64,000 nucleotides of DNA from Hyphomicrobiales bacterium (GTDB lineage: Bacteria; Pseudomonadota; Alphaproteobacteria; Rhizobiales; JAJFHB01): positions 48,950-112,949 of the forward strand of contig JAJFHE010000013.1 in assembly GCA_021775755.1 (NCBI GenBank), read 5' to 3'. Positions 6,456 to 31,425 of this stretch are shown here, piece by piece; positions within the stretch are counted from its first letter, which is position 1; each line of letters starts with the position of its first letter. The position numbers and the translations under genes were made by a program. The notes under the pieces are model-generated. The model was given only the letters and a program-made list of their open reading frames with translations, was not told the DNA's origin and searched no databases.

Positions 6456-6483
6456 GGCCCAGATGAGAATTTGGAGTGCCGAT

Positions 6484-6924: not shown

Positions 6925-6935
6925 GCAGCGTACTC

Positions 6936-7295: not shown

Positions 7296-7584
7296 TGCCT
7301 CGCCCTTTTTTTCTCTGAACGCGGACTTCTGGTCCGCCGGCTCCCTCAGGGGGTGGAAATTCTCGTTGGTCTGCGAACCAAGTTTTGCCTTGTTACTGCG
7401 GCCGAATCGCTATCCAAATCAGCGAATTCAGAGTACTAATGCGCCACCGCAAACCGCAGTTGGCTCCATCGATTCGCCTGTGCCGGTGCTTGCAGCAGAT
7501 TCGGAGTATACGTGCCACACTCTATAGATCTTATCGTCCTTCGGATGTCATCATATCGACATGATCCGGTGACGGAATACATAC

Positions 7585-8313
7585 ATGCGAGTTGACCGTA
7601 TACGAGAGATCGTACAGGAGCGCCGAAAGGCGCAGGTGCAACCCGTCATGCGTGCGTTCGATGCCGCGGCGCAGACCTACGATCAAACGCGCCGGGCCTT
7701 GATCCCCGATTACGACGCTTTCTATGGCGCGGCGCTTGGATGCCTGCCGCCGGACCGCCGGCAGCCTCTTCGCATCCTCGACATTGGGTCGGGGACCGGC
7801 GAATTTGCAAAAAAGATCGGCGATGCTTATCCGCACGCGCGCATTATCGTGTCCGACGCCAGCGCCAAAATGCTGCAGGAGGCGGAACGAAAGCTCGGCC
7901 GCGACGTGCGCTATGAATTTGCCCGCATCGATGCCTTGCTTGATCCTTTGCCCGAAGACATCGATGTCGTCGTCTCTTCGCTGGCCATTCACCATTTCGA
8001 TCACGCCGACAAGCGCGCTGTTTTCGGCCGCATTTGCAACGCACTGGCGCCCGGCGGAATCTTTGTCAACGCAGATCAGGCCTCGACGGGGTCGGATGCA
8101 CAGGACAAAGTGCGGTTCGAAGAGTGGTTGCGCGATGTGCAGGCGGGCGGCATCAACAAGATCGAACTCAAAGCGGCGCTGAAGCGCATGAAGGAATTCG
8201 ATCAGAACGCCCCGGTCACGGCGCAGGTGCGCTGGATGGAAGATGCCGGCTTCCGGCAGGCGGGTGTCGTCTACTTCAACTATTTCTGGGCCGTGTTCGC
8301 GGCCGCGAAATAG
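7585..8313 (+). CDS. Class I SAM-dependent methyltransferase
   Basis: Motif I ILDIGSGTGEF, motif post-I IIVSDAS, LAPGGIFV; 242 aa. Confidence 0.75.
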   Translation: MRVDRIREIVQERRKAQVQPVMRAFDAAAQTYDQTRRALIPDYDAFYGAALGCLPPDRRQPLRILDIGSGTGEFAKKIGDAYPHARIIVSDASAKMLQEAERKLGRDVRYEFARIDALLDPLPEDIDVVVSSLAIHHFDHADKRAVFGRICNALAPGGIFVNADQASTGSDAQDKVRFEEWLRDVQAGGINKIELKAALKRMKEFDQNAPVTAQVRWMEDAGFRQAGVVYFNYFWAVFAAAK

Positions 8314-8324
8314 AACTCCCCCCC

Positions 8325-9197
8325 GTGACCCCTGAACGCATTAGGCCCGACCCGCTGCCCGCCATCAGGCCGGTGTGGGAGTATCAGGCCGATGATGAGC
8401 TTCGCACGACCTATGAGGCCTATAAGCAGGCGTTTCAGGTGCCCTGGGTCGGTGTCGTTTCAATGGCGTATGCTCATTATCCAACCTTCTTTCAGCGTTG
8501 GTGGTCGGCCCTTCAACCGGTGGTGCCGACACGTGCCTATGTAGAGGCCGCGTTTGCCGTGCGCGGCGCGGTGGAAGACGCCGTCTCGGCGCTGAACCCG
8601 CCGCCGATCAGGCCGCGGCTTGAGGAACTCGGTTACTCGCCGCGCGAGATTGCAGAGATCGCCCACACCATTGAAGTGTTCTCGCACGGCAATTTCATTC
8701 AGGGCCCGGCGGTCTTTGCTGCGCGGCTGTTGCTGGAAGGCGGTGGCATGGGTGAAGATTTGCCGCTTGGTCCCTTGGCGGCGAGCCACGCGCCGCAACA
8801 TGACACGCCGTTCGTTCTCATAGAGCCGCACCATGCGAGCGCGGACGTGCAGGCGTTTTACGAGGAGATCAAGGCGGATCTCGGTCTGCCGTTCATCAAC
8901 ACCGATTACCGGGCGCTGGCACGCTGGCCTAGCTATTTCATGCGTGCCTGGGGTGATTTGCGCGGTGTGCTTGCAACGCAGGCCCATGCCGAACTTGCCC
9001 GGGATATGCACAACCGTCTCTTTGAAGCCGCGGCCGGGCTGCCCAATCCCGAAAATCTCTCCGCCGGCGACCTTCAGGCCGCGGCCCGGGCGGACGCGCC
9101 GTCCGACGACGTTCTCGCCATGACGCGGCTGTTCACCTACCTTATTCCGGGACTTGTGGTGAATGTCGCCTTCTTCCGGGCTCAGCTCCAACAGTAA
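8325..9197 (+). CDS. DehI-like halocarboxylic acid dehalogenase family protein
   Basis: Sequence resembles DehI family (…YKQAFQVPWVGVVSMAYAHYPTFFQRWW…AFYEEIKADLGLPFINTDYRALARWPSYF); GTG start at 8325 chosen because long ORF 8034.. overlaps upstream gene; start uncertain. Confidence 0.5.
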   Translation: MTPERIRPDPLPAIRPVWEYQADDELRTTYEAYKQAFQVPWVGVVSMAYAHYPTFFQRWWSALQPVVPTRAYVEAAFAVRGAVEDAVSALNPPPIRPRLEELGYSPREIAEIAHTIEVFSHGNFIQGPAVFAARLLLEGGGMGEDLPLGPLAASHAPQHDTPFVLIEPHHASADVQAFYEEIKADLGLPFINTDYRALARWPSYFMRAWGDLRGVLATQAHAELARDMHNRLFEAAAGLPNPENLSAGDLQAAARADAPSDDVLAMTRLFTYLIPGLVVNVAFFRAQLQQ

Positions 9198-9590
9198 AGA
9201 GACGACATAATACCGAGGGCGGCAATTATTGACCCGTTTCACCGGGATGATTTTACCCTCCGGCAAGGCGCGTACTGCGCCGCGGTACAGGTACCGTAAA
9301 CAGTACGCAACGCTGCTGGAGGGCAAAAGCACCCGGCCTGCGGTGGGCCATTCCGGCCCGTCGACCACGTTGCGGGCCTTGTCCGATACACTGCATCGCA
9401 CTGCGGCCCGCGCCTCGTCGAGCGAGCCGGAATGGCTCATGAAATGGGTCAATAATTGCCACCCTTGGTATAATCCGGCGGACACGAGTGCGCCGGCGCG
9501 TGTCTTGTGTTTCTTTGTGCTGGCGGATGCTCTATAAGGCGCGCCGATCTTTCCTGTAACGACTTTTCGATTCTCCGGACCGCACCAAAC

Positions 9591-11249
9591 ATGGCCAAGC
9601 ACCAATACATTTACGTCATGGACCGTCTGTCCAAGACGTTCTCCGGCGGCAAGCAAATTCTAAGTGACATCCGCCTGTCGTTTTATCCCGGCGCGAAGAT
9701 AGGCGTGCTCGGCGTCAATGGAGCGGGCAAGTCGACACTGCTGCGCATCATGGCGGGAGAGGACACGGAGTATCAGGGCGAAGCCTGGGCGGCTGACGGC
9801 GTCAAGGTCGGGTATCTTGCGCAAGAACCTGCACTCAACGATGACAAGGACGCGCGCGGCAACGTCATGGAAGGCGTTGCGGAAAAGCAGGCGGTTCTCG
9901 ATCGCTACAACGAACTCGCCATGAACTACTCCGATGAGACCGCCGGCGAGATGGCGGAGCTCCAGGACGTTATCGATGCGGCCAACCTGTGGGATCTCGA
10001 TTCGCAGGTCGAGCAGGCGATGGATGCGCTGCGGTGTCCACCCGATGACGCTGACGTTAAAGAGCTGTCGGGCGGCGAGCGCCGCCGCGTGGCGCTATGC
10101 CGGCTGCTGCTGGCGCAGCCCGACATGCTGCTGCTCGACGAGCCGACCAACCATCTCGACGCGGAGTCGGTGGCATGGCTTGAGCAGTTCCTGACCGCCT
10201 ATCCCGGTACCGTGGTGATGGTGACGCACGATCGCTACTTCCTTGACAACGTGACGGGCTGGATTCTTGAGCTGGACCGTGGCCGGGGCATTCCCTACGA
10301 GGGCAACTATTCGTCCTGGATCGGGCAGAAGAAAAAGCGGCTTGAACAGGAGGGACGCGAAGAAGATGCGCGTCAGCGCACCCTGTCGCGGGAGCTCGAA
10401 TGGGTGCAGTCGAGCCCGCGCGCGCGCCAGGCAAAGTCGAAGGCGCGTTTCAAGGCGTATGACGACCTGCTGGCACAGGCATCAAAGGATCAGGAGGGCC
10501 GCGCCCAGATTACGATCCCGCCGGGTCCAAGGCTTGGTTCGCTTGTTATCGAGGCTGAGCATTTGAGCAAGGGCTTCGGTGACCGGCTGCTGATCGACGA
10601 TCTGTCGTTCCGGTTGCCGGCCGGCGGCATTGTCGGCGTGATCGGCGCCAATGGCGCGGGCAAGACAACTCTTTTCAAAATGCTGACCGGTGACGAACAG
10701 CCGGATGCCGGGGCGCTCAAGGTCGGCGACACGGTAGAGCTTGGCTATGTGGATCAGAGCCGCGACGCGCTCGATGCAAACAAGAATGTCTGGGAGGAGA
10801 TCTCAGGCGGCAACGATCTCGTGGCCCTCGGCAAGCGTGAAGTCAACAGCCGCGCCTATGTGAGCTGGTTCAATTTCCGCGGCGGCGATCAGCAGAAAAA
10901 AGTCGGCAGTCTGTCCGGCGGTGAACGTAACCGGGTGCATCTTGCAAAGATGCTGAAGTCGGGTGCGAACCTCCTGTTGCTTGACGAACCGACCAATGAT
11001 CTCGACGTCGATACGCTGCGCGCGCTGGAAGATGCGTTGGTGAATTTCGCCGGCTGTGCCGTCGTCATCAGCCACGACCGGTGGTTTCTGAACCGCATCG
11101 CCACGCACATCATGGCGTTTGAAGGCGACAGTCATGTGGAGTGGTTCGAGGGCAATTACGAGGACTATGAGGCCGACCGCAAGCGCCGTTTCGGCGAGGA
11201 GGCCGAGCAGCCGCACCGCATCAAATACAAGCGCTTCGCGCGCAACTGA
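9591..11249 (+). CDS. ettA: ABC-F family ATPase, energy-dependent translational throttle EttA
   Basis: [17 protein letters not shown]...; two ABC domains with Walker [10 protein letters not shown] and GANGAGKTT, signatures [11 protein letters not shown] and [11 protein letters not shown], no TM domain; ATG 9591 in frame of ORF 9507..11249. Confidence 0.85.
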
Positions 11250-11256
11250 CCGTCTG

Positions 11257-11973
11257 TCAGCCGTTGCGGGTGAGGAAGGCGAAGAGGGCGTTCAGATCGC
11301 CCTTTGCCTTGCGGATGATCGAGACGAACTCGGTGCGCTGCTGGAACGTCAGCCAGATGCCGTTGACGCTGACATCGAACACCTTGAAGCCGACATCGGT
11401 GCGGATGACACGCCAGATGACCGGCAGGGCGCGGCCGCTGTCGAACCAAACCTTGGAGTGGACCAGCGTTTCTTTCTCGGAGCGCTCGTGGGATCCGGTC
11501 ACTTCAACGGATCGGCCCTTCAGGTTGGAGCTGTGCGTGACAAATATCCGTGCGATGTAGCCTGATACCAGTTCGAAGTAGGGTTGGCGGTGTTCATCCG
11601 CCAGGCGGTTTGCAAACTGACCGAGGGAGAATATGGCGATCGTCGGAATGTGCGCGTGCGCGATAAGCAGGGCCTGGAACCGCGCCTTCTTTTCATCCGC
11701 CGTTGCATCGGAAACGGCGACGGCAAGGATGGAGCCGGCGATACTTGAGATGAACTCCTCTGCCGGGTGCGGCAGTGGCGGAATCACTGTCTGGTCCGGC
11801 AACGGCTCGATTAAAACCTGTGCCGCCAGTTGACTGATAGGCAGGGCGCTTAGCCCCACCATCGCCGTCGTCGCGAGCAAAAGCGATCGCCGGGTCAGTC
11901 TTCTGGCATCTGGCACCGCATTCATCTGGCCGAAGTCTTCCGCTGGTTTAGTTTGCGCTTTGGTCGCTGCCAT
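11257..11973 (-). CDS. MlaC/Ttg2D-family phospholipid-binding periplasmic protein (Tat/Sec signal)
   Basis: RRSLLLATTAMVGLSAL signal; core resembles toluene-tolerance Ttg2D/MlaC (FELVSGYIARIF...VWFDSGRALPVIWRV...FKVFDVSVNGIWLTFQQRTEFVSII). Confidence 0.6.
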   Translation of the reverse strand: MAATKAQTKPAEDFGQMNAVPDARRLTRRSLLLATTAMVGLSALPISQLAAQVLIEPLPDQTVIPPLPHPAEEFISSIAGSILAVAVSDATADEKKARFQALLIAHAHIPTIAIFSLGQFANRLADEHRQPYFELVSGYIARIFVTHSSNLKGRSVEVTGSHERSEKETLVHSKVWFDSGRALPVIWRVIRTDVGFKVFDVSVNGIWLTFQQRTEFVSIIRKAKGDLNALFAFLTRNG

Positions 11974-11985
11974 TGAGGCCGCGCC

Positions 11986-12624
11986 TTAAGCGTTGGAGCG
12001 GAGGTACTCTATCAGCCCCTGGATCTTGCCGTCATTTCTGCGAATAATGCTGACAAATTCCGACTTTTGCGTCGTGGCGAGCCATACGCCGGAGACACGA
12101 ACGTCAAACACCTTCAAGGCGCCTCCGGACGTGGTCACGCGCCACTGCACGTCGAGTTTGCGTCCGCTTGAGTAGAGCACCTGGGAGCGCACGATAATGT
12201 CTCTTGAACTGCGCACGGTGCTGCCGAGGATTTTAATCTCGTTGCCGGCAAAATCGTTGATATGCCGAATGAACACACCGGCGACAAACCTCATAACAAG
12301 TCGGACATATTCGTTTTTGGAACTGCCCGACAGGGAACGGTACTGGCTGCCGTAGGAGCCCAGCGAGAACACGGCGATCTTGGCGCGCGCGGCCTTGCTC
12401 CACAAGAGGTTGAAGAACTTGTCCTTCTTGGACGTGTTGTTGCCGCCTCCGTTGACGACGCCGAGGATTCGCGTGCCGACGTCCTTGATGAAGTTTTCAG
12501 CGGCTGTCGCGGCCTGTGCGTCATTTGCGGGCATGCCGAACGTAAAGCCGGAAAACAATGCCGCCGTGGCGCCGGCAAGAATCGACCGGCGGGATGGACG
12601 TGTGTGCACAATGTCTTTTGTCAT
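11986..12624 (-). CDS. MlaC/Ttg2D-family protein (tandem paralog)
   Basis: SRRSILAGATAALFS signal; LKVFDVRVSGVWLATTQKSEFVSIIRRNDG parallels upstream paralog; start placed at ATG (MTKDIVH) rather than ORF-track start 12735. Confidence 0.55.
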   Translation of the reverse strand: MTKDIVHTRPSRRSILAGATAALFSGFTFGMPANDAQAATAAENFIKDVGTRILGVVNGGGNNTSKKDKFFNLLWSKAARAKIAVFSLGSYGSQYRSLSGSSKNEYVRLVMRFVAGVFIRHINDFAGNEIKILGSTVRSSRDIIVRSQVLYSSGRKLDVQWRVTTSGGALKVFDVRVSGVWLATTQKSEFVSIIRRNDGKIQGLIEYLRSNA

Positions 12625-12862: not shown

Positions 12863-13681
12863 CTATCTGATGTCCGGAATGTCGGGAAGCTCGTCTTCGA
12901 CAATTTCACCATTGTTAATCTCGGACACCCGGCTCTGCCAGTAGAGCGTCTTGAGAGTGGTGTAGTAGTCCGGTGAGCTCTCGCGCACGCTGTCGAGGAC
13001 ATCGAGCGCATCTTCGCGCGCCGATACCATCGTCGCCAATGTCGGCGAGGATGCTTCGATGAACGAATTGTCCCAGAGAATCCAAGTCCACGGGTTGGCA
13101 AGTACATCGACGGCGCGGCCCACCAGGTGGCGCGGGGTCGAGGGGCCAAGGATCGGCGCGACGATATAGGGGCCGGACGGGAAACCCCATACGGCCAGCG
13201 TTTGTCCGAAGTCTTCGGTGTGACGTTCCCAGCCAGCCTGGGACGCGACATCGTTGATGCCGCCTATTCCAGCGATCGTATTGACAAAGAAACGCGCAAC
13301 CGTCGTGCTCGCGCGATCGCTGTTGCCTTGCAGCAGGTCGTTCGCCAATGTGATCGGCGTCGCGGCATTGCTCAGAAAGTTGGCAAGGCCAAGACGGACG
13401 GGCGGTGGCAGCACGGCGCGATAAGTGATCGCGACGGGCCGGAAAACAACTAGGTCCACGGCGTCGTTCAACGTGAAGATCACACGATTGACCGGCTCCA
13501 ACGGATCGGCGAGGTCAAGCGCTGAGGAGCCGTCGTCGTAATCATCTACGTCGTCGGCATAGGATGCCGGCACTGAAATTGCCATCACGAGCATCGCAAT
13601 TGCCAGAATGCCGCCTAAGCGGCCAAGGCCAAACGATCGCCAAAGCATCTGGGCTAGTGTCTTCCTGGACTGGCCACCCAT
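12863..13681 (-). CDS. MlaA/VacJ-family lipoprotein
   Basis: NRVIFTLNDAVDLVVFRPVAITYRAVLP...GPYIVAPILGPSTPRHLVGRAVD matches VacJ/MlaA family; N-terminal hydrophobic signal; start placed at internal ATG 13681. Confidence 0.6.
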   Translation of the reverse strand: MGGQSRKTLAQMLWRSFGLGRLGGILAIAMLVMAISVPASYADDVDDYDDGSSALDLADPLEPVNRVIFTLNDAVDLVVFRPVAITYRAVLPPPVRLGLANFLSNAATPITLANDLLQGNSDRASTTVARFFVNTIAGIGGINDVASQAGWERHTEDFGQTLAVWGFPSGPYIVAPILGPSTPRHLVGRAVDVLANPWTWILWDNSFIEASSPTLATMVSAREDALDVLDSVRESSPDYYTTLKTLYWQSRVSEINNGEIVEDELPDIPDIR

Positions 13682-13977
13682 CGAAGGGTTACTCCTTAAA
13701 ATTGCGGCACTGCAAACCGCGCAAACGGACCTTCTATCCCGTCTCGCGGTGCACACTATTCAACAAACTTTGAGTCGACAATAGCACTTCAATTCCGCCG
13801 TCGATACTTTTGTTGCACTCCCTAAGTTATTTTTTCGTTGAAACCGTTGCTTAAATGACGCGCTTTTGGCGCGGGGCAGCCGGTGCGATTTTTCCGTGAA
13901 CTTGCGGAGCATATAACAATATGTTTATATCTCTAAGTTATGGATGGGGATGAATTGCTCACGACAGAGGGTTTCCG

Positions 13978-20867: not shown

Positions 20868-22517
20868 TTACGCTGCCGCCTGGCGGCAGTAGCAGGAGGC
20901 CTTGATGACGACCTCGGCACGGGCGGCGGCGAGGTCGAGGCGCTGTTTGATGATCGGCGCTTCGACGGTTTCGCCGCGGCGCGCGAGGCATTCGTGCAGA
21001 CCGTGCAGGCTCCAGACGTTTTCGGGGTGCTGACATGCCCGCGACAGTGAACCGTCGAGGCCGAGATCGGCGCGGTAGACGGCTTCGGCCTCTTCGGCGC
21101 GATCCTGTTCAAGGAGCAATGCGCCTAACGCGTGGCGCGCCGGTTGCATCCAGCCCCAGGGTTCGTCATAGGGCAGCGAGTCATCGAGCCCGACCGATTT
21201 GCGCAAATGGTCGAACGCCACATCGAAATTGCCGCGCCGGTACTCAAGCTCGCCATTGAGCATTTCGGTCGCGACTTCAAGCAGGTCGTTCACCGTGTTG
21301 TTGTGCACCCGGCGGCTCTTTGGAACGTTTGCCTTCGCTTCGAGGAACGCTTCGCGCTCGCGTTCTGCATCCTCGATATTGCCAAGCGCGGAGTGCGCAA
21401 CGGTCTTGGCGTAGAGGATCATCGCGGTGGTAGCGCAATAGAGTTCGCGGTCCCCGGGCAGATCCTGATCGATGATGTCCTGCCACTTGCCGAAGCGGAT
21501 GAGGACATGCTGCTTCATCGGCAAGTAGCCCTCCAGAAAGTCGGCCATGGGGGGCGAGGGGATCTGCAAGAGCTCTTCCGGCGTCGTGTCGATCAGTTCC
21601 TGCGCGGCTTCGATTGCCGGCGTGTACTGGCCGAGGAACATGGCGCCGTAGATCGCGAAATGATGATCGTGCACGCGATACATCGAATAGACATTCAGGG
21701 CGCCGGCGCGCTCCAGGAACCGGCGGTCGGCGGCAATGGCCTTCTGGTTGTAAACGACGACGTCGCGATAGTGGCCGCACAGGACGTCGATGTGTGTCGG
21801 CATGTGAATGAGATGGCCGGCATCGGGCACCAGATCGCGCAGCTTGTCACCGGCACGCAGGGCACGTTGGGGAAAGGGCGACATTTCCATCAGGTGGACG
21901 TAGAGGTGCAGCAGTCCCGGATGCGACCATGAGGCTTCGATGTCACGCATTGCGGCTTCAAGAATCTCGACCGCTTCCTCGGTACCCGCGCCTTCCGCGA
22001 CGCCGCCGGTCTGCAGATCCCACATTTTCCACGGCGTGCGGTTCATGATCGCCTCTGCGAAGACGGTGGTGATTTCAAGGTCCTGCGGGTGCGCCTTAAA
22101 TACTTCGCGCATCGCGTCTGCATAGTCGTCATTCCACAGCGACATGTCTTCGATCGGATCTCGTGCGGGATAGCGCGCCGGCAAGGCCTCGATCAAGGCA
22201 CGCTCGACCGGCGTGATGCCCTCTACGCAAGCAAGCGCCTGCTCCATGGCATCGTATGCCAGCACCAGCGCTTTTTCCCGGCCAGCCGGGTCATAGAGGT
22301 GCCATGGCAAATTGTAGTTTGGACCAGCCGCGTAGGAGATGCCCCAGTGGGCCATGGCGCAGTCCGGGTCCGCCTCCAGTGCCTTTTGAAAACACTCAAT
22401 CGCTTCGCCGTGGTTATAGGCGTAGGTCCAGTTGAGACCGCGATCGAACCAGAGTTGGGCTTCGGGAGGCTTTGCCGTTATTGGTCGTTTGAATGCACCA
22501 AGATCGTAATAGTCCAT
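20868..22517 (-). CDS. Tetratricopeptide-repeat protein (~550 aa)
   Basis: Start placed at MDYYDLGAFKRP (RBS GGAGG 7 nt upstream) inside ORF 20868..22787; multiple TPR-like helical hairpins (WFDRGLNWTYAYNHGEAIECFQKALEADPDCAMAHWG...). Confidence 0.6.
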   Translation of the reverse strand: MDYYDLGAFKRPITAKPPEAQLWFDRGLNWTYAYNHGEAIECFQKALEADPDCAMAHWGISYAAGPNYNLPWHLYDPAGREKALVLAYDAMEQALACVEGITPVERALIEALPARYPARDPIEDMSLWNDDYADAMREVFKAHPQDLEITTVFAEAIMNRTPWKMWDLQTGGVAEGAGTEEAVEILEAAMRDIEASWSHPGLLHLYVHLMEMSPFPQRALRAGDKLRDLVPDAGHLIHMPTHIDVLCGHYRDVVVYNQKAIAADRRFLERAGALNVYSMYRVHDHHFAIYGAMFLGQYTPAIEAAQELIDTTPEELLQIPSPPMADFLEGYLPMKQHVLIRFGKWQDIIDQDLPGDRELYCATTAMILYAKTVAHSALGNIEDAEREREAFLEAKANVPKSRRVHNNTVNDLLEVATEMLNGELEYRRGNFDVAFDHLRKSVGLDDSLPYDEPWGWMQPARHALGALLLEQDRAEEAEAVYRADLGLDGSLSRACQHPENVWSLHGLHECLARRGETVEAPIIKQRLDLAAARAEVVIKASCYCRQAAA

Positions 22518-22680
22518 GAGGCCTCCTGCGATGGGTCGTGCGCCCGGCAATCGGGTACCGCCAAGTCTGACAGATCGTGCGATCTCACGGAACCCTTCGG
22601 GTATTCCCAGACTCGGCTCGACACCGCTCACCTGTATTCCTAGTCTGCGACCCCCGGGCAGCCGGCAAGGACGGAGCGGT

Positions 22681-22902
22681 ATGTGGTCGAAAAATGCACT
22701 GACTGAACGATTGAACCTGGACTGGCCAATCCTGCAGGCGCCGATGGGGGAACTGACGACGCCCGCGCTGGCCGCCGCCGTCGCCAATGCGGGCGGTGTT
22801 GGCGGCCTGGGAATGTGGGGATTTTCGGGTGAAGAGGCCGAGCGGCGTGTCGCCGGTTTTCGTCAGCAGAGCGGGGGATGTCTTAACGTCAATGCTGAGT
22901 AA
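22681..22902 (+). pseudogene. Truncated nitronate monooxygenase (NMO) N-terminal fragment, ~73 codons
   Basis: MWSKNALTERLNLDWPILQAPMGELTTPALAAAVANAGGVGGLGMWGF = canonical NMO N-terminus; frame terminates at 22902 exactly where GC content collapses. Confidence 0.6.
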
Positions 22903-23151
22903 CTCATATGTTCCTTTTTGCGATTGAGTGCATTGGACGGCAGTCGTATTACCTCTTGGCCAAAGACAGTAAACGCCGAACACCCGAGAAATATATCCGT
23001 ATACGGATGTACACGGCATTAGAATTCAAATAAAAGTGAAATGTAGAATGGTTCTCTTGAGTTAATTTATTTGATTTAGCGCTGCTTTCTCGCAATCATA
23101 ATATCTGTTGATACATTGTTGATTGTAAAAATTTGGAAAGGCAGAACGTTT

Positions 23152-24627
23152 ATGGCCATATCAGACATTCACGATCAAATGGAGCAGGCCTGCCAAGATC
23201 AGTTTGGCTTCGGTGTTCGGTATGTTTTTCTTCTGGAATCATTTGCGTATTCAATAAGTCAGATGATTGCGCTTGGCGTACATCAAAATTGGCCAACCAC
23301 CCGAAAAGAAATATTTCTGAGCTTTGACGTAGACCCGGCTAATGTCGCTCTCGCAGAAAACGTTGCGACCTCGAATTTCGATGTTGACGCAAAGTATGAT
23401 GTAATCCTTCATCTCCCCAACGTTCCAACCGACGTGATCACACAATACACTGTGCAGTTTAGTGGTGGAACGGCAACCGTCGGTATCGACCCCACCATTG
23501 ACAACAAACTGTCACTTAACTTGGCTGATCGAGGTATCTATAACTGGAAAGCTCAGAGTAGACCATCCGACTTTCTTGACAAAATTAAAGCCGCCGGGTT
23601 TGTTGACGACGATGGCAATCCAGATGAACAGGAATTTCTGAGATTTGAGTTCGCTCTATTTACTTTCCAGCCAGACTATTTCTTGAGCGGCCTTTTAGAT
23701 CTTATCCAGTTCCCAGTTGTGCGGGAAGGTCTGAAGACCTTCCGCCTTGGATCTCCATTGAATATAACATTTACTCCTGACTATATTGCAGTGCATTCTG
23801 AAAATATTGAGTACGAAGATAGGCCTTGCACTTTTGGAATATCTTCAGCATCGCAAATATCGGTTCTGGTATCAGATGAGGAGATCAAGAAAAACACAAA
23901 TACCGTGTTTTATTCTGAAGAAATGGAGAATGTTGCAGTTACATTTGATGAAAAACTCGATGAAATGAGAACATTTATAAATGAAGTAAATGTAAATATA
24001 GGTCCATTTGGAGAATATCCAATTGTGTATTACTATCGGAAAAATATTTTGTATGATTACACTTTTGGAAAAGTGAAACCTTCCGTTACTTATTCGGACA
24101 GGAATCGCTTTGGACCATTTAGGTGGTACTATGCGATTACTGCCGCACTGTCCCACCTAGCAATTGCATTTCAACAAATCTCTCCGACAACGGCAAAATT
24201 AACACTGGATGTTCCGCTCGAAATGTTCGGGCAAGCCGGTGCCAGCATCCGCCTAGGCTGTGTTACTTACAATGTACTGAATGTGGCGTGTGAAGGGTCG
24301 GTGAATCCACTAACTGTTGAGGCAGAGGGTGGGGTAAATATGAACACACATGAGGTGTTCTTGTCGACCAAGCTGGCCAACGCCAATCCGCGACTCAGAT
24401 GGAGTACAGGTTTCGGGTTTCCTTTTGATCAGATTGCGACGAAATTAATCAATTGGATATTGAGGAAGGAATTTCGTAAGTTCATTGGCCGGCCTACGGA
24501 TATCCTACGAGTACCGCTCGCTGATATATCCGATGTCGCTATATCCTCGGACCTTCAGTTTGGCGCCCTGGGGTCTGATGCAAAAACTGATTCACTGTTA
24601 ATCGGTTTGCATTTGGACCGGGGCTAA
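23152..24627 (+). CDS. AT-rich orphan protein of unknown function (491 aa), horizontally acquired
   Basis: Uninterrupted 1.5 kb ORF in ~40% GC DNA in a ~63% GC genome; ATG 23152 has GGAAAGG RBS; no signal peptide, TM helix or recognisable catalytic motif. Confidence 0.65.
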   Translation: MAISDIHDQMEQACQDQFGFGVRYVFLLESFAYSISQMIALGVHQNWPTTRKEIFLSFDVDPANVALAENVATSNFDVDAKYDVILHLPNVPTDVITQYTVQFSGGTATVGIDPTIDNKLSLNLADRGIYNWKAQSRPSDFLDKIKAAGFVDDDGNPDEQEFLRFEFALFTFQPDYFLSGLLDLIQFPVVREGLKTFRLGSPLNITFTPDYIAVHSENIEYEDRPCTFGISSASQISVLVSDEEIKKNTNTVFYSEEMENVAVTFDEKLDEMRTFINEVNVNIGPFGEYPIVYYYRKNILYDYTFGKVKPSVTYSDRNRFGPFRWYYAITAALSHLAIAFQQISPTTAKLTLDVPLEMFGQAGASIRLGCVTYNVLNVACEGSVNPLTVEAEGGVNMNTHEVFLSTKLANANPRLRWSTGFGFPFDQIATKLINWILRKEFRKFIGRPTDILRVPLADISDVAISSDLQFGALGSDAKTDSLLIGLHLDRG

Positions 24628-24717
24628 CTTTCAGGCCTCGGAGTTAGTTAGGGTCAAAACCCAATCAAAGTGTTGAATTAAAGTAGCAAATCAGATTCAA
24701 AGCCTGCAATCAACGGA

Positions 24718-24945
24718 TTGAAGGCTTATATGGCTCGTTTGTTCTGGCTTTCAGATGCCCAATGGGCTGTCATTGAACCGCATCTGCCCAAAAACCAGCC
24801 GGGCGCACGGCGCGTCGATGACCGGCGTGTGATCTCCGGGATCATTCATGTCTTCAAGACGGGTTGCCGCTGGTGCGATTGTGCCGATGAGTACGTCCAT
24901 CGACAGCACCTATATCAAGGCACACCGCTCGGCCCATGGCGGTAA
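24718..24945 (+). pseudogene. IS5-family transposase orfA with internal deletion/frameshift
   Basis: Conserved N-terminus then frame divergence (CADEYVHRQHLYQ... vs expected continuation found in another frame). Confidence 0.6.
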
Positions 24946-24951
24946 AGGGGG

Positions 24952-25377
24952 GCGAAAACGCAGGCTATCGGCCCCTCGCGCGGCGGACAAACAACCAAAA
25001 TCCATGCCCTGACAGATGTCATCGGACGCCCCTTCGCCTTCACGCTCACCCCAGGCAACGTCTCAGACACAAGCGCCGCACCCGTTCTGCTGACGGCTTT
25101 GCAGGGGGCACGTTATGTCCTTGGCGATAAGGGATATGATGCTGATGCGCTTCGAAAAATGCTACGGGCTTCGAACACGGTTCCCGTCATACCCGGCCGG
25201 CGCAATCGCAAACGAACAATCGTGTATGACAAGCGTCGATACCGTGACCGTCATCTCATCGAAAACGCCTGCTGCCGCCTCAAAGACTTCCGCCGCGTCG
25301 CAACCCGTTATGACAAACTCGCCAGGATCTTCCTGTCAGCTGTCGCACTGGCAACCCTCGTCGCTTCCTGGATATGA
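24952..25377 (+). CDS. IS5-family transposase orfB (DDE domain portion)
   Basis: GDKGYD...IENACCRLKDFRRVATRYDKLARIF motif. Confidence 0.6.
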   Translation, partial: AKTQAIGPSRGGQTTKIHALTDVIGRPFAFTLTPGNVSDTSAAPVLLTALQGARYVLGDKGYDADALRKMLRASNTVPVIPGRRNRKRTIVYDKRRYRDRHLIENACCRLKDFRRVATRYDKLARIFLSAVALATLVASWI

Positions 25378-25398
25378 TTGAGTCTGAACCCTAACGGT

Positions 25399-26118
25399 TC
25401 ACTCAAGCTCATATGCATGTGTGCGGATCACACCGCCGAACTGTTCAACTTCGCACAGTATCCGTTCGCGTTTCGGCGCGAGGTTGAAAGGCGGGCGCGT
25501 CAGCACCACGCCGCTCCCGGAGTGGAGCCGGATTGACGGGCCGATAGGCTTGTCCACGTTCGCCGGAAAGTCATCGCCCGACGGCAAGTGTTCCGTGACC
25601 AGGAGATGCTGGAAAGTGCCCCGGAGTTTGCTGACAAATCGTATGATGTCATCGTTGGGTAAATGCTGCAGCACCTGCCGAACAAGCGCGACATCGCCGC
25701 CGGGCAGTTCGTTTTTGACCATGTCCAGGACGCGAAAACTCAGGTTTGCCTGCCGGTACAAGGTTCGATTTTCATCGATCAGGCCGGCGACCAGATCGCA
25801 GGCAAGATATGAAGACGAAAATTCTACGAGTTGTGCACCAACATTGAAGTCGCCGCAGCCGAGATCGACGACGTCGGGCTTCTTGCCGAGCACCCTGATA
25901 AATTCCTGCACCGCAGTCACATAGGTGTCGACGATCGCCGGGTCGTGGGAGCCACCTCCGGAGAAATACTCTCTGTTGTCGGTGTGAGCAGGGCCCCAGG
26001 CGTCATCGCGATAGATTTTCTCGAATACCTGCCGGCTGTTCAAACCGGAATAACCTGCCTCACGGCGAAACAGGCGGTTTAATTTCCGGCTTGCAAAAGC
26101 TTTGAGGCGGTCAGGCAT
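25399..26118 (-). CDS. Class I SAM-dependent methyltransferase
   Basis: VVDLGCGDFNVG motif I, acidic motif II ACDL, motif IV LRQVLQHL; start placed at MPDRLKAF inside ORF 25399..26268. Confidence 0.6.
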   Translation of the reverse strand: MPDRLKAFASRKLNRLFRREAGYSGLNSRQVFEKIYRDDAWGPAHTDNREYFSGGGSHDPAIVDTYVTAVQEFIRVLGKKPDVVDLGCGDFNVGAQLVEFSSSYLACDLVAGLIDENRTLYRQANLSFRVLDMVKNELPGGDVALVRQVLQHLPNDDIIRFVSKLRGTFQHLLVTEHLPSGDDFPANVDKPIGPSIRLHSGSGVVLTRPPFNLAPKRERILCEVEQFGGVIRTHAYELE

Positions 26119-26587
26119 CGGCGGATTGACTGTTCGTTTGGGCAATTTTCCCACCAAGGTTTCGGCCGGTCTGCATGTGCGCTGGCGCATTCGCGTGGTG
26201 AGCACGCGTGTTGACATCGCAGCAAGTGTCACCTGTCGGGTTTTATGGATTGGCGGTTCGAAGCACAATGCCCGAACTCGATAATTTCAAGAGAAATAGA
26301 TTGCCTGACCGGGCTCTCTGACGGCGAAACCCGATGCGCTTTCATGATTGTTTCTCAGCCCGCACAACGCGTGTCTGGAATGCACTGTCTTCCCCGCGAA
26401 GGATGTCTTGATGTGATGAGAATGCCATTGAAAATCTTCGCCCATACTCTTTGCGTGCAAAGTAAAATGAACTGATTTCAGGGGGATTCAACCGAACAAT
26501 GTAGTTGCGAGGCGCGTTCCCCTATGGAACATTGAGAACGGGCAATGAGTACAGTATGGGGATTAAATTGAGCATCATTGTCGCGAA

Positions 26588-26864
26588 GTGCAGCCAAGAG
26601 CAACGAGCTTGGTGCTGGCGTCGGCCGCCCTGTTTGCAGTGCTGTTGTATGTGCTTGACCAGCGCATCAAACATTGGCGGTTGATGCCATCTTATCTGCT
26701 GGCGACAATCATCATTTTCTATGCGGTCCCGTCCGTAACCGGCACATCTATCACGATGGCCGAAAGGTTGGGGCCCGCGCAAGGGCAGCATTCAGGGGTT
26801 CAGGCAATTGCTGCACGGATCTGGCTGTCCAGTGAGTTAGTCGTCCGAATGGAGCGCAGCTTAA
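26588..26864 (+). pseudogene. N-terminal two-TM membrane segment, probably the frameshifted 5' part of the downstream coiled-coil gene
   Basis: LVLASAALFAVLLYVL and YLLATIIIFYAVPSV hydrophobic helices in frame 2; coiled-coil repeats continue in frame 0 immediately after a TAA at 26862; tandem ACAGATACAGAC at the junction. Confidence 0.35.
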
Positions 26865-27419
26865 GCAAGGTACACGAAGATCAATACAGATACAGACGAG
26901 CTACAGGCCGAACAGACCGAAATCCGGCATCTGAAAGACACGGTTGTCGCGCTGCGGACAAAGATGGAGTCTCTGCAGTTCGACGCCCAGGAAAATGTGC
27001 AGCGTGCTGTTGCCGACAGCAACGATGAGATTATACAGCTTCGCGAGACGGTCAGCGCCTTGCGCGAGGAGTTGGATGATCTAAACCACGAAAAAACCCG
27101 TGCCGTGCAGGAGGTTCTCGCGAGCCATCGCGACGAAATTGAACAGCTCACAAACACCGCACAAGCGCTGCGCGACGAACTGGACAACCTGAACCACGAG
27201 AAGAACACGGCGGTCCAGGAGATGTTGCAGCAAAGCCGTGAGGAAACGGGGCAGCTGCGCGAAACCGCCCAGGCCGTTCGAGATGAGTTGGATGCCGTCA
27301 AGTTCAGCTATGAGGGCAGGATTGAAGAGTTAGAGCGTACGGCGCGGGAGGACCGCAGGCAGTTGCACGAAACGATCACCAAGCTGAGGGAGGAACTGGA
27401 GGGGAAACATGGCAAGTGA
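26865..27419 (+). CDS. Coiled-coil repeat protein (three ~38-aa repeats EIxQLxxTAQALRDELDxLNHEKxxAVQE), translationally coupled to downstream cyclase
   Basis: Repeat-rich heptad sequence; first ATG only at 26964 although repeat-like coding starts right after stop at 26862; stop overlaps start of 27409 gene by 11 nt. Confidence 0.5.
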   Translation, partial: ARYTKINTDTDELQAEQTEIRHLKDTVVALRTKMESLQFDAQENVQRAVADSNDEIIQLRETVSALREELDDLNHEKTRAVQEVLASHRDEIEQLTNTAQALRDELDNLNHEKNTAVQEMLQQSREETGQLRETAQAVRDELDAVKFSYEGRIEELERTAREDRRQLHETITKLREELEGKHGK

Positions 27420-29706
27420 CGTGCTGGACGACCCGGCCAAGATACAATCCAAGCGTTTGGCGGAGACACGCAAGAGCCTGCGAAAGGCAGAAATGCTGCT
27501 GGAAGCTTCGCGCAAAATTGCGTCGTTCGATAACCTGGACGATGCGCTGGAGGCGCTTGTCGAGCTTATCTCGAAGGAATTGGACGCCGAACGCAGCAGC
27601 CTGTTTCTGAACGATACCCTGACCGGGGAGCTTTACTCGCGCATTGCGCAGAAAACCCTGTCGCGTGAAATCCGTATGTTGAACAACGTTGGAATCGCCG
27701 GTGCGGTTTTCCAAAGCGGCACCGGTGAAATCATTCCCGACCCCTATGCGGACGCACGCTTCAATTCAGATGTCGATGAGCAAACCGGTTTCACCACCCG
27801 GTCCATCGTTTGTGCGCCGGTGAAAACGGCGGCGGGTGAAGTGATCGGTGTTACCCAGGCACTGAACAAGAAAAAGGGGAAATTCGGACAAGACGATCTG
27901 GAGCTTCTCGAAGCGATTGCGGCGCAAGCCGCCGTAACCCTGCAGAGCAAGCAGTTTGTTGAGCGGATGGAGAAGAACCGCGCACAGGAGATTGAGTTCC
28001 TCAACATTGTTTCAGACGTCACATCCGAACTGGAACTTGGCAGCTTGCTCACCAAAGTCATGGGTGAGGCGACGCGCATGCTGAATGCTGAGCGCTCGAC
28101 CCTGTTTCTCAACGATGAAAAGACGAACGAGCTGTTTTCGCGTGTAGCCATGGGCGATGCATTGGGCGAGATCCGGCTGCCCAATCATTTGGGCATAGCG
28201 GGCGCGGTCTTCACGTCGGGACAGACGGTCAGCATTCCATATGCCTATGCGGACCTTCGGTTCAATCCGGCATTCGACAAGCAGACCGGGTTCTTCACCC
28301 GCTCCATCCTGTGTGTTCCGGTGACGAACAAAGACGGCAAGATGATCGGCGTCACGCAGGTTCTGAACAAGAAAACCGGTTCGTTCACGGACGACGATGA
28401 GGCGCGGCTTCGGGCCTTTACCGCCCAGGTCTCCATTGCTCTGGAAAACGCCAAATTGTTCGAAGATGTCCAGAGCATGAAAAACTACAATGAGAGCATG
28501 CTGGAGAGCATGTCGAACGGCGTCATCACGATGGACGAGGAAGGAAAAATCGTCACCTGCAACGGCGCCGGCATGCGCATCATGAACGTGGAACCGGCCG
28601 ACATTCTGGGCAAGCCGGCAGTCGAGTTCTTCGTAAACAAAAACGCATGGCTGCCGGACCGCATCAAAAAGGTCGAGGAACGCGGGGAAGCGGACGTGCT
28701 CATGGACGTTGAACTGGAGTTCGGCGGCGAAACAATTTCGGCCAACATCAACGTGCTGCCTCTCCTTGGCGAGAAGGCGAAGAAGCTCGGTTCGATGGTA
28801 ATGATCGAAGATATTTCATCCGAAAAACGGATGAAGTCGACCATGTCCCGCTACATCGATCCAGGCATTGCCGACCAGCTTTTGGCAGGCAGCGATGCGG
28901 AGAACTTTCTGGGTGGAAAAAGCAGCGAAATCACGGTGCTTTTCTCCGATGTTCGCAGCTTCACAACTCTAACCGAGTCGCTGGGCGCGCAAGGCACGGT
29001 GGAGATGTTGAACGAGTATTTCACCATCATGGTCGACTGCATTACCCGTGAGGGCGGCATGCTCGACAAGTTCATCGGCGACGCCATCATGGCGGGCTTC
29101 GGCATCCCGATATCCTATGACGACGATGAGGACCGCGCTGTCCGGGCGGCCATCGCCATGATTGTGGAACTTTGGGAGTGGAACAAGCACCGCGAGGCAC
29201 AAAACAAGCTGGCGATCGACCACGGTGTGGGGCTTAACACGGGGCTTGTCGTCTCCGGTAACATCGGTTCGCCGAAACGCATGGACTATACGATGATAGG
29301 CGATGGAGTGAACCTTGCCGCACGGCTGGAGTCGGCTTGCAAGCAATACTCGGCCCGCATTTTGATCAGCGAATTCACGCGCGCGAAGCTGAAGGGGACT
29401 TACCGGTTGCGCGACGTTGACATGGTGGTGGTGAAGGGCAAGACCGAGCCGGTCAAGATTTTTGAAGTGCTCGATTATCACACGCCGGAAACCTTTCCAA
29501 ACCTGATGGACGGCGTTGGATATTTCAACGATGCGATCCAGCATTATCGCGCCGGTGAGTGGGATAAATCCGTTGCAAAGTTTTCCGAGGCCCTGACGGC
29601 TAATCCGGGCGACGAACTGGTAAATACCTATATCGCCCGCTGCGAACAGCTGCGGGCTAGTCCGCCAAAAGACTGGGACGGTGTCTGGGTTATGACTTCG
29701 AAATAA
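27409..29706 (+). CDS. GAF-GAF-PAS sensor class III adenylate/guanylate cyclase with C-terminal TPR-like tail
   Basis: Two GAF-like blocks (…FLNDTLTGELYSR…GIAGAVFQSG…CAPV and …FLNDEKTNELFSR…GIAGAVFTSG…CVPV), PAS (MLESMSNGVITMDEEGKIVTCN), cyclase motifs (ITVLFSDVRSFTTL…KFIGDAIMAGFG…GLNTGLVVSGNIGS…DYTMIGDGVNLAARLE). Confidence 0.8.
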   Translation: MASDVLDDPAKIQSKRLAETRKSLRKAEMLLEASRKIASFDNLDDALEALVELISKELDAERSSLFLNDTLTGELYSRIAQKTLSREIRMLNNVGIAGAVFQSGTGEIIPDPYADARFNSDVDEQTGFTTRSIVCAPVKTAAGEVIGVTQALNKKKGKFGQDDLELLEAIAAQAAVTLQSKQFVERMEKNRAQEIEFLNIVSDVTSELELGSLLTKVMGEATRMLNAERSTLFLNDEKTNELFSRVAMGDALGEIRLPNHLGIAGAVFTSGQTVSIPYAYADLRFNPAFDKQTGFFTRSILCVPVTNKDGKMIGVTQVLNKKTGSFTDDDEARLRAFTAQVSIALENAKLFEDVQSMKNYNESMLESMSNGVITMDEEGKIVTCNGAGMRIMNVEPADILGKPAVEFFVNKNAWLPDRIKKVEERGEADVLMDVELEFGGETISANINVLPLLGEKAKKLGSMVMIEDISSEKRMKSTMSRYIDPGIADQLLAGSDAENFLGGKSSEITVLFSDVRSFTTLTESLGAQGTVEMLNEYFTIMVDCITREGGMLDKFIGDAIMAGFGIPISYDDDEDRAVRAAIAMIVELWEWNKHREAQNKLAIDHGVGLNTGLVVSGNIGSPKRMDYTMIGDGVNLAARLESACKQYSARILISEFTRAKLKGTYRLRDVDMVVVKGKTEPVKIFEVLDYHTPETFPNLMDGVGYFNDAIQHYRAGEWDKSVAKFSEALTANPGDELVNTYIARCEQLRASPPKDWDGVWVMTSK

Positions 29707-29751
29707 GGCCCGCAACGGCAATGTCGACTTCTTCGGTTTTTCGGAACCGCT

Positions 29752-30519
29752 CTAGAAGGCGATGTTTGAAACGAGCCGGCAGGCCTTGCATTGGAAATCG
29801 AATATCGGAGCAATCGGTTCGTCCAGTAGCCATGCGCCGCCGCAGGACGGGCAGGGGCGTTTGCTTTCATTGTCGTGTGTCCGTCGTGTGCCGCTTGCGC
29901 GGTAGAGATAGTAATACGTTGGAGTGCCGGTGCGTTCCTCGATCTCCCGGCAAAGCTCACGCCCTCGCCGCGCCAGCGAGCTCTCATGATCCGACATCTG
30001 CGCAATGCCGAACCGTTCGCCGGTACGGCAGTTCATCTGCAGTGTGTCACAGGCCTTGTAATCGTCGTTCCAGATCAACAGTTCGTAGTGTTCATCGTGG
30101 TCCGACGCCGGCAGGGAGTAAAGCGGGATGACGCCGAAGCAGTCGAGGCACTTTACCGGCGGTGCCGACGACAGGTAGTCCGTCTTCAGGACAAAGGCGG
30201 AGCTTTTTTTGCAGGCGCAAGGGCACCAGCCTTCGACGTCCCTTCCCTTGAGTACAAGAGAGGGCTTCCCGACGCCTTGTGATTTCAGTTCCCGAAGCGC
30301 CTTTTTTACCCACTTGTTTGCATGACGTTTGTCGAGTGAGCGTTTCTCGGGAATGGTCAGCCATGCGCGCAACCGGCCTTTGGATGTGAGATGAAGGTCG
30401 GCGAAGGTGTTTGCCTGGCCACTTTTTACCCAGGCTCCCAGCAGGGTGTATATGGCTTGCTCGGCCTTTTTCCGACCGCCCTTTTCGGGAATGTTGAATG
30501 ACACTTGCGCGAGATACAT
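29752..30519 (-). CDS. Cys-rich Zn-ribbon protein (possibly DUF2310-like)
   Basis: 255 aa with paired Cys clusters (CPCAC, CLDC, CPSCGGAW, CKAC); basic N-terminal half; family assignment from memory only. Confidence 0.45.
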   Translation of the reverse strand: MYLAQVSFNIPEKGGRKKAEQAIYTLLGAWVKSGQANTFADLHLTSKGRLRAWLTIPEKRSLDKRHANKWVKKALRELKSQGVGKPSLVLKGRDVEGWCPCACKKSSAFVLKTDYLSSAPPVKCLDCFGVIPLYSLPASDHDEHYELLIWNDDYKACDTLQMNCRTGERFGIAQMSDHESSLARRGRELCREIEERTGTPTYYYLYRASGTRRTHDNESKRPCPSCGGAWLLDEPIAPIFDFQCKACRLVSNIAF

Positions 30520-30839
30520 ATCGATCCTTAACCCGTTGGCGGCGTTTGTCTTTTCATCTTAGCGCCTGAACGGTCCCAATGCGAGTGTTAGGCAGGCAGC
30601 CGCCCGCCGCCGGTGGCTGGGTGGGCGCGTGGTTGATTGTGACATTATTGCATCACTAAAATGCTGCGCCGCACCATTGCTGCCCGGCGCCGCTTTTTCG
30701 CCCCATTCCGGCTTATAACGCCGCACCCCGGATCGACTACCGGTCCGAGCCCCAGCGGGTGGAGTTCTGTATGCTCCCCTGGCGCGGCGGCCCTCTGGGT
30801 CGTTTTCCGTGTGCCGTGGGCCGGACGGGTGCGGTTTGG

Positions 30840-30912
30840 GTGCGCATAGCTCAATTGGTAGAGCTCTGGCCTCTAAAGCCAGTGGGTGCGGGTTCGATTC
30901 CCGCTGCTACTA
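30840..30912 (+). tRNA. tRNA-like element (tRNA-Trp-like body, anticodon loop CUCUAAA = CUA; acceptor stem not base-paired) - probable tRNA pseudogene / integration-site remnant
   Basis: Canonical D-arm TAGCTCAATTGGTAGAGC, anticodon stem CTGGC/GCCAG, T-arm GCGGGTTCGATTCCCGC; but 5' GTGCGCA vs 3' TGCTACT cannot pair; no CCA. Confidence 0.45.
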
Positions 30913-30993
30913 CGCGATATGCCCAGAGGTTGGGCGACAGATTGCAAATCTGTTGGCAGATAGCTTGTGAGGTTCGATTCCTCAATCGCTCCA
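30913..30993 (+). tRNA. Second tRNA-like element abutting the first (GCA anticodon, 14-nt variable region, T-arm, 3' ...TCCA; acceptor pairs only 5/7)
   Basis: D-arm GCCCAGAGGTTGGGC, anticodon arm ACAGA-TTGCAAA-TCTGT, T-arm TGAGGTTCGATTCCTCA, 3' ATCGCTCCA; 5' ACGCGAT mismatched at first two pairs. Confidence 0.35.
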
Positions 30994-31425
30994 ATTCGGC
31001 CTTCCATGCCGAACCAGATTGGAAATCTGGCGATATCAATTGGGCGCCCCGGAGTGTGCCCGGCAATGCACCGGCAGAAATTTTCCGCAAGTGCGGAGGG
31101 TGTGGCGGGTGCGGCGCCGCGAGCGGGACGCTCAGCGTCCGTGCATGAGGGGGCAACCGCGACACGGCGCCCAGGCGCCGGCTCGATGCCGTATCCTGCC
31201 CGAGCACGAAGTTTCGTGTTCAGGCGGAGCGGAGGAGCGCCGGTGCCCCGGCCCATTTGTCCCGGGCGTCCCCGGCACGGATCCGCGGTCCGTTCGTTCA
31301 CGGCCGCTCCGGGGCGCCTCTATGAGGCGCCGATGCGCAATGTGACGATGAGTGAAACTGAAACTTGAGAAAGGAAGACAAACGCCATGCGAGAGCGCTG
31401 ACGATTTGTGTGAAAGGAGAAGAAC

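Follow-up and report, generated by a model that had tools for sequence, protein, structure and literature searches.

Results

The open reading frame and its junctions

The analysed stretch of DNA, referred to below as the window, comprises 64,000 nucleotides of contig JAJFHE010000013.1 from a Hyphomicrobiales bacterium (assembly GCA_021775755.1), and all coordinates are given in its numbering. An intact open reading frame (ORF) at 23152..24627 on the + strand, stop codon included, starts with ATG and encodes a 491-residue protein predicted to be a leaderless protein of two tubular lipid-binding (TULIP) domains, folded like human BPI and CETP. The frame of 1,476 nt has no internal stops, as was stated in the initial annotation, which was made from the sequence without database searches. 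The in-frame TTG at 23116 is an alternative start which would add only 12 residues. The ATG start is supported by the relatives of the protein: in about 45 of them the sequence opens with M..aH..L..FC...GIGI, the conserved N-terminal motif of the ATG form. The Shine-Dalgarno-like sequence GGAAAGG lies about 10 nt upstream of the ATG and corresponds to the plausible ribosome-binding site noticed earlier.

The guanine-cytosine content (GC) of the ORF is 43.8%, and the GC at its third codon positions (GC3) is 42.6% compared with 69–79% in five host genes sampled from the window. Outside the island, equal-sized segments of the 64 kb have a GC of 60.8 ± 2.4% with a minimum of 53.9%, so the ORF lies about 7 standard deviations under the local norm. 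The compositional mismatch in the initial annotation was therefore real, but its figures of about 40% in a genome of about 63% GC were slightly overstated, the determined values being 43.8% and 60–61%. Likewise, the described richness in Lys, Asn, Phe, Tyr and Ile was found for Phe, which is high (7.3%), and for Asn (5.5%), but not for Lys and Tyr (3.9% each). The AT-rich block extends over 22897-24648 with a GC of 43.0%. Its first part is a foreign leader at 22897..23151 (+ strand, 255 nt, 37% GC), which holds the GGAAAGG site and a perfect 14-nt palindrome, ATCCGTATACGGAT, at 22995-23008, about 145 nt upstream of the ORF. The palindrome could be an operator or a terminator-like hairpin of the minus strand. 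The ORF is foreign and unameliorated in its composition.

The left junction of the block is formed by the remnant of a host nitronate monooxygenase (NMO) gene at 22516..22902 (+ strand; Pfam PF03060), which matches only positions 2-41 of the 331 in the profile. The gene is cut at about 22895, after some 70 of about 330 codons, at the point where the GC drops, and its frame stops a few bases inside the AT-rich DNA. The remainder of the NMO gene, its 3' part, does not reappear downstream. The right junction is formed by a degenerate 747-bp element of the IS5 family of insertion sequences (IS) at 24648..25394 (+ strand), in agreement with the IS5 remnant that had been reported beside the gene. 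The element is bounded by 19-nt terminal inverted repeats at 24648-24666 and 25376-25394 (TTAGGGTCAAAACCCAATC / TTAGGGTTCAGACTCAATC), and its broken transposase frame includes a DUF4096 fragment at 24718-24945 and a DDE fragment (DDE_Tnp_1_2) at 25099-25377. Since the transposase frame is broken and no matching target-site duplication was found at the ends, the element is a remnant or a rearranged copy. The good 19-nt repeats, the absence of a target duplication and the split transposase together suggest that IS-mediated deletion or recombination shaped the right junction. In the simplest history, a foreign DNA segment larger than today's would have inserted into the host NMO gene and broken it, and the adjoining IS5-family element would afterwards have deleted a part of the insertion, leaving about 1.75 kb which consists of the 255-nt leader and the ORF.

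Sequence family and its distribution

The 491-residue protein matched no Pfam family and no PADLOC family (PADLOC-DB v2), known or candidate, at E<=1. Nothing credible was obtained with NCBIfam and PHROGs, searched to E<=1-10; two NCBIfam lines with E values of 0.1–0.2 were rejected as noise, their scores being 11–12 bits against cut-offs of 404 and 500. No match among the PDB sequences was detected even at E<=10, either with the single protein or with the family profile as the query. The initial statement that the protein could not be assigned to any family thus holds for all these sequence collections; at the level of the fold, an assignment to BPI/CETP-like double TULIPs was possible (see below).

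When 5.8 billion proteins were searched with a word index, only the protein itself and two relatives (49% identity) were recovered, and the repetition with an alignment of 58 sequences added nothing. The family emerged only with the exhaustive phmmer search of 1.84 billion cluster representatives, in which 74 clusters passed E<=1e-3 and 37 of these also E<=1e-10, and the gene is accordingly not the orphan that it had been called. The 74 relatives are mostly 450–530 residues long, their C-terminal 200 residues are conserved best, and the mean column identity of the family is 21%. The alignment, the Pfam scans and the residue counts below refer to the 58 full-length members. None of these contained a credible Pfam domain, and the TULIP models LBP_BPI_CETP, P47, DUF4403 and DUF1439 were unmatched at E<=0.01.

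The family was rarely encountered in genome collections. Neither the 72,556 plasmids nor the 50,697 phage genomes searched by tblastn contained a match. For the closest clade, pattern scans revealed no relatives among 185,579 species-representative genomes (GTDB), in the JGI metagenomes or in IMG/VR; the second clade gave five matches among the same species representatives, and two further clades were likewise without relatives in IMG/VR. The named hosts were Photobacterium swingsii, Reichenbachiella, Terriglobia, Gemmatimonadales, Comamonadaceae, Chryseobacterium and Phycisphaerae. The family is real, divergent and very sparse, and it is spread over at least five phyla. It lacks a Pfam, NCBIfam or PADLOC model; the family is new and unannotated, but its fold class, that of the bacterial BPI-like double TULIPs, is known. 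The earlier choice of this gene as the least characterised one in the window was reasonable, with the reservation that the novelty is that of a new family with a known fold and not of a categorically new protein.

Predicted structure

The AlphaFold2 model, which was built from the 58-sequence alignment, had a predicted local distance difference test score (pLDDT) of 89.2 and a predicted template modelling score of 0.85. According to the DSSP assignment on the model, the N-terminal TULIP domain covers residues 1-230 (23152..23841, + strand; isoelectric point (pI) 4.3, charge -18) and consists of a helix at 3-14, a strand at 18-23, a helix at 24-40, five long strands at 55-134, helices at 141-182 and interface strands at 197-221. 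It is followed by a variable acidic linker, residues 231-290 (23842..24021, + strand), with pLDDT blocks of 50–69 and gaps in the alignments. The linker length varies over the family, and the region of about 240-290 is the only uncertain part of the model. The C-terminal TULIP domain, residues 291-491 (24022..24624, + strand; pI 9.1), is the most conserved part of the family and carries the conserved motifs GxAGAxIxxGC and FGFPFDQIA. Its order of elements is a helix at 297-308, seven long strands at 312-419, a 27-residue helix at 425-451 and interface strands at 455-489. Each half of the protein is thus composed of a helix, long strands of up to 26 residues, a long helix and short interface strands.

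A TULIP domain is defined by helix A, a long and highly twisted antiparallel sheet which wraps around this helix, helix B and interface strands (bioRxiv 10.1101/2025.09.09.675085; PMC6791001), and both halves of the model follow this published order. The arrangement of a BPI-like pseudo-dimer was also found in the model: two TULIP domains are located on one chain, separated by the linker 231-290 and provided with the interface strands 197-221 and 455-489. In the structure comparison, 309–328 residues aligned to BPI and CETP, and the values obtained were 8.6 for P47 of Clostridium botulinum, 8.0 for OrfX3, 6.7 for OrfX2, 6.2 for Escherichia coli YceB and 5.9 for SPLUNC1. The independent Foldseek search placed LBP (3e-11), BPI (2e-9) and P47 (2e-7) on top, followed by Der f 7, SPLUNC1, YceB, the juvenile-hormone-binding protein (JHBP), SMP and Takeout; all 50 of the 50 matches listed belong to the TULIP superfamily. 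Foldseek matches in the viral library, levivirus maturation proteins and others, were rejected due to template modelling scores (TM-scores) of 0.05–0.18 and low probability.

Because all 50 of these listed matches belong to the TULIP superfamily, the 491-residue protein is confidently predicted, on the basis of the model, to be a BPI-like double TULIP. The global TM-scores were only 0.30–0.38 and the sequence identity was about 10%, which indicates a distant family with a different angle between its domains. The profiles of the N- and C-terminal halves, compared by hhalign as a test of internal duplication, showed no similarity (probability <4%).

Leader, charge and cysteine residues

Neither a hydrophobic leader nor a transmembrane segment was found in the 491-residue protein, the top Kyte-Doolittle window of 19 residues having a value of 1.52, which confirms the earlier description of a protein devoid of signal peptide and membrane helix. 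The leaderless N-terminus is conserved in about 45 of the 58 members. Twin-arginine (Tat) leaders (for example MKRRDFV, MKRRNFI, MNRRRFI and MLTRREFI) were present in about 6–8 members which form one subclade; by their N-termini these include P0012, P0021, P0027, P0058, P0059 and P0064. Export by the Tat route would mean that these proteins fold, and perhaps load their ligand, before export. The whole window protein is acidic (pI 4.7), the N- and C-terminal domains having the opposite characters given above.

The most strictly conserved cysteine, Cys226 (codon 23827..23829, + strand), is invariant in all 58 members, usually within a Cys-Pro pair. A disulfide role for this residue was rejected because it is kept also in members without any other cysteine. 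H7, C14 and C370 are conserved in 72–86% of the members.

Selection and maintenance of the gene

Among the window gene and three homologues, the proportion of synonymous differences (pS) was 0.78–0.92, which is saturated, and that of nonsynonymous differences (pN) was 0.32–0.50. As pN is far under the saturated pS, the family is under purifying selection. Together with the GC3 of the ORF, this agrees with the recent acquisition and selection that had been proposed for the gene. One of the two closest relatives, L002, has a single in-frame TAG at 2280-2282, where its relatives have Leu. The frame of L002 runs on past the TAG, and the 96 residues downstream are 65% identical to the window protein. 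Since the contig coverage is only 1.8x and the sequence beyond the stop is conserved, the TAG speaks for an error of sequencing or for a very recent loss, and against decay of the whole family.

These data bear on the possibility that the ORF is non-functional cargo, i.e. foreign DNA which was stranded by IS activity and is heading to decay. Its position, with a disrupted host gene on one side and a broken IS on the other, the TAG in the close homologue and an unconvincing promoter scan would be in accordance with such a fate. Against it stand the frame that is still open over its whole length in AT-rich DNA, the amino-acid change well under the synonymous change across the homologues, and the retention of all the family motifs, the invariant C226 included, in the window copy. 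Decay of the gene, which had been named as an outcome that would speak against its interest, is for these reasons considered highly improbable.

Genomic context of the homologues

Sixteen loci, the window included, were examined. No neighbour or partner gene is common to them. The GC of the gene was more than 2 points under that of the flanks in 10 of the 14 loci with measurable flanks. The homologue L002 is plasmid-borne and adjoins a MOB relaxase and NikA. Near the homologue of L023, transposases and a PIN toxin are encoded, and near that of L009 a reverse transcriptase. In L012, the homologue has a truncated LysR gene on one side and, on the other, a repeat of the 3' end of that gene. The last approximately 86 LysR codons are duplicated around it, at 9187-9450 and 11766-12026 of the locus, with about 90% protein identity, and the fuller copy has no helix-turn-helix. 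L012 is the second case, like the window, in which the arrival disrupted or duplicated a host gene. From these observations, we infer that the gene is mobile and accessory and belongs to the flexible genome.

The earlier suggestion to look for the homologues in defence islands gave a positive result for 5–6 of the 16 loci, with the window locus itself negative. According to the PADLOC and Pfam scans, defence or candidate-defence neighbours within about 8 kb are strong in five loci and weak in a sixth. In L008 (Reichenbachiella), PDC-S31 (1e-62) and a complete Septu system (PtuA 1e-128, PtuB 5e-55) at 6311-9794 lie directly upstream of the Tat-leader homologue P0012 and are co-oriented with it, and the island is bounded by a gene for an NYN-domain nuclease and an integrase. 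L004 (Photobacterium) contains the viperin pVip (4e-109) with a kinase, PDC-S26 (1e-83), BrxR and ParE. Two GmrSD-type genes are located directly upstream of the homologue in L015, and a full-length PDC-S53 (E=0) directly downstream in L017. Upstream of the homologue on the P0058 contig, DUF499+HEPN_Swt1 lies at a distance of about 8 kb and an SNF2/NOV_C helicase at about 2 kb. The weak case is a HerA/mad8-like neighbour in L009. The remaining approximately 10 loci, the window included, have no defence neighbour. The frequency of 5–6 in 16 is higher than our informal expectation for a random gene.

Such a neighbourhood would fit a single-gene defence against phages or other mobile genetic elements, which refines the interpretation of the gene as an acquired lipid-binding accessory factor and is compatible with it. 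The protein would extract or perturb inner-membrane lipid upon infection (abortive infection), or the Tat-exported members would block phage entry at the cell envelope. In addition to the five strong neighbourhoods, the gene is stand-alone, patchy, horizontally transferred and low in GC, which is typical of defence genes. On the other hand, the protein matches none of the PADLOC models, the genes next to the ORF in the window are not defence genes (the PADLOC matches there were only generic, a class III cyclase domain and coiled-coil noise), most of the loci examined are without a defence neighbour, and no published link between TULIP proteins and phage defence was found in the literature searched. 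The absence of relatives from the phage genomes and IMG/VR speaks neither for nor against this role. The initial idea of a toxin or a single-gene defence protein thus gained nothing from the known toxin and defence models, all of which were unmatched, and it is kept as a tentative one; the defence role is regarded as possible but rather unlikely.

The ordinary neighbours at several loci, of a metabolic or regulatory kind (such as LysR, HxlR, OmpA and TonB receptors), are in accordance with another role, that of a housekeeping-type carrier of lipids or hydrophobic compounds. Similarly to DUF4403 and YceB, such a carrier would serve membrane lipid homeostasis or a hydrophobic metabolite, and its mobility would be due to chance. 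The fold is shared with proposed envelope lipid shuttles (PMC6791001), and the twin-arginine leaders would direct one subclade to the periplasm. However, core lipid-homeostasis genes are normally vertical and widespread, whereas this family is extremely rare (zero relatives of the closest clade and five of the second among the species representatives), has no conserved context and is of foreign composition in most hosts. Most of its members are also without an export signal, unlike DUF4403, YceB and DUF2993. The carrier role is considered as doubtful as that in defence.

Neighbouring segment of the window

Beyond the IS, on its right side, a segment of 5.6 kb (25397-31000) has a GC of 56% compared with 61% elsewhere and ends at a tRNA-Cys (30912-30992). 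The segment contains genes for a SAM methyltransferase (25399-26268, minus strand), a 151-residue coiled-coil protein (26964-27419), a GAF-GAF-PAS class III nucleotide cyclase (27409-29706) and a DUF2310 zinc-ribbon protein (29752-30519, minus strand), and may represent an island of older date, in which no integrase was detected. An integrase or a tRNA-targeted island was rejected as the cause of the insertion into the NMO gene, the tRNA-Cys being 6 kb away and the integrase absent. About 9 kb upstream of the ORF, at 12863-13756 on the minus strand, a gene of native composition encodes an MlaA lipoprotein, which maintains the lipid asymmetry of the outer membrane; it is unlinked to the TULIP gene. 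The flanking genes share only about 65% identity with genes of large replicons of Rhizobiales and Rhodobacterales.

Discussion

The ORF at 23152-24627 is probably a recently acquired, functional, stand-alone gene whose product, according to the model, would be a soluble protein without a signal peptide, composed of two tandem TULIP domains joined by a central beta-sheet in the architecture of BPI, LBP, CETP and P47. In each domain, the long twisted sheet would wrap around the helices and form a hydrophobic tube. Acyl chains of lipids, or some other hydrophobic ligand, would enter the tube, and by means of this uptake the protein would bind, extract or shuttle membrane lipid. By analogy with BPI, CETP, P47 and TipA, the most likely function would be to hold or move a lipid or hydrophobic ligand in the two tubular cavities. 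As there is no export signal, the window protein would work on the inner membrane from its cytoplasmic side, and the site of action of the Tat-bearing subclade would be the periplasm. Judging from the distribution of the family, the gene most likely serves in conflict or niche adaptation, perhaps in defence against phages, rather than in the core biogenesis of the envelope.

Several points weigh against this interpretation. The fold rests on a predicted model, in which a continuous hydrophobic cavity is assumed. With TULIPs of known function, the sequence identity is about 10% in every case, and no TULIP Pfam model was matched either by the 58 members or by the window protein at the thresholds given above. 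The invariant free cysteine is foreign to the known lipid-transfer TULIPs and may refer to a chemistry beyond passive binding. The acidic N-terminal domain is unlike the cationic N-terminal domain with which BPI and LBP bind the lipid A of lipopolysaccharide. Finally, the scan for promoters and terminators around the ORF gave results no better than the shuffled background.

Among the roles compatible with the data, a generic accessory function in conflict or niche adaptation is placed first. The defence effector is ranked within that frame; the carrier stands level with it, the dead cargo lies far below, and a P47-like toxin accessory comes last. The most specific proposal, an immune effector encoded by a single gene on the BPI/LBP fold, which is cytoplasmic or Tat-exported, protects against phage through the membrane lipid and uses Cys226 for sensing or catalysis, is more speculative than a defence role in general and should be regarded as unlikely. 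If it were true, BPI/LBP would join the folds of animal innate immunity with anti-phage counterparts in bacteria, such as viperin, gasdermin, cGAS and TIR. In the case of a defence role, the family would provide the first immune protein with a lipid-transfer fold in bacteria, in parallel to BPI and LBP. In any other case, it would represent a compact, soluble, two-domain lipid binder which deserves a Pfam entry.

Bacterial TULIPs are few and poorly understood, and three features distinguish the present family: the absence of a leader, the invariant free cysteine and a mobile gene found repeatedly beside anti-phage systems. These features make the defence role worth testing. As regards the window host, the practical yield is modest: the observations show a recent IS-associated acquisition, which may or may not be of physiological value to this alphaproteobacterium.

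Comparison with known TULIP systems

BPI has a conserved disulfide. The window family, in contrast, has the free Cys226. The two-domain TULIP architecture is shared by the family with BPI, LBP, CETP and PLTP; the identity is at the level noted above, and the LBP_BPI_CETP and LBP_BPI_CETP_C profiles were unmatched. Unlike BPI and LBP, the window protein has no signal peptide, and its acidic N-terminal and basic C-terminal domains are the reverse of those of BPI. The orientation of the domains differs from that in the BPI/CETP group, as was indicated by the low TM-scores, and the window family is bacterial, mobile and single-copy.

The bacterial TULIPs described by Levine 2019 are P47/OrfX2, YceB/DUF1439, DUF4403, DUF2140 and DUF2993, and those of Gram-negative bacteria carry envelope leaders (PMC6791001). 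DUF4403, DUF2140 and DUF2993 are predicted TULIPs, and the set is completed by P47/OrfX, YceB and TipA (PMC6791001; bioRxiv 10.1101/2025.09.09.675085). TipA of Bdellovibrio is a double TULIP which holds lipids and binds bilayers, has a signal peptide and needs its operon partner TipB (bioRxiv 10.1101/2025.09.09.675085). The members of the window family, in contrast, are mostly leaderless, and no partner gene recurs across the 16 loci. The family is further set apart from the known bacterial TULIPs by the invariant C226, by the acidic N-terminal and basic C-terminal domains and by the lack of sequence similarity between its two halves.

P47 and OrfX2/OrfX3 of Clostridium botulinum are encoded in orfX-p47-ntnh-toxin clusters of Firmicutes, and the identified hosts of the window family are Gram-negative lineages. 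A role similar to these proteins, as a toxin or a toxin-accessory factor directed against a eukaryotic host or competing bacteria, is the least probable of the alternatives. The cluster was seen neither in the window, where the gene adjoins the NMO fragment and the IS, nor in the 15 other loci, none of the homologues being adjacent to orfX1-3, ntnh or a toxin gene. The P47 profile of Pfam was unmatched, no secretion-system or immunity gene is adjacent, and the protein is acidic overall.

DUF4403 differs from the window family in its hydrophobic leader, most of its members being predicted outer-membrane lipoproteins (PMC6791001), whereas the window family is leaderless or Tat-exported; the Pfam profiles of DUF4403 and YceB (DUF1439) were not matched by the window protein (E<=1) or the 58 members (E<=0.01). 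In its general layout, the window protein resembles the pseudo-dimeric TULIP DUF4403 of Levine 2019 (PMC6791001), which has a length of about 460 residues, two TULIP domains per chain and hosts among the Gram-negative bacteria.

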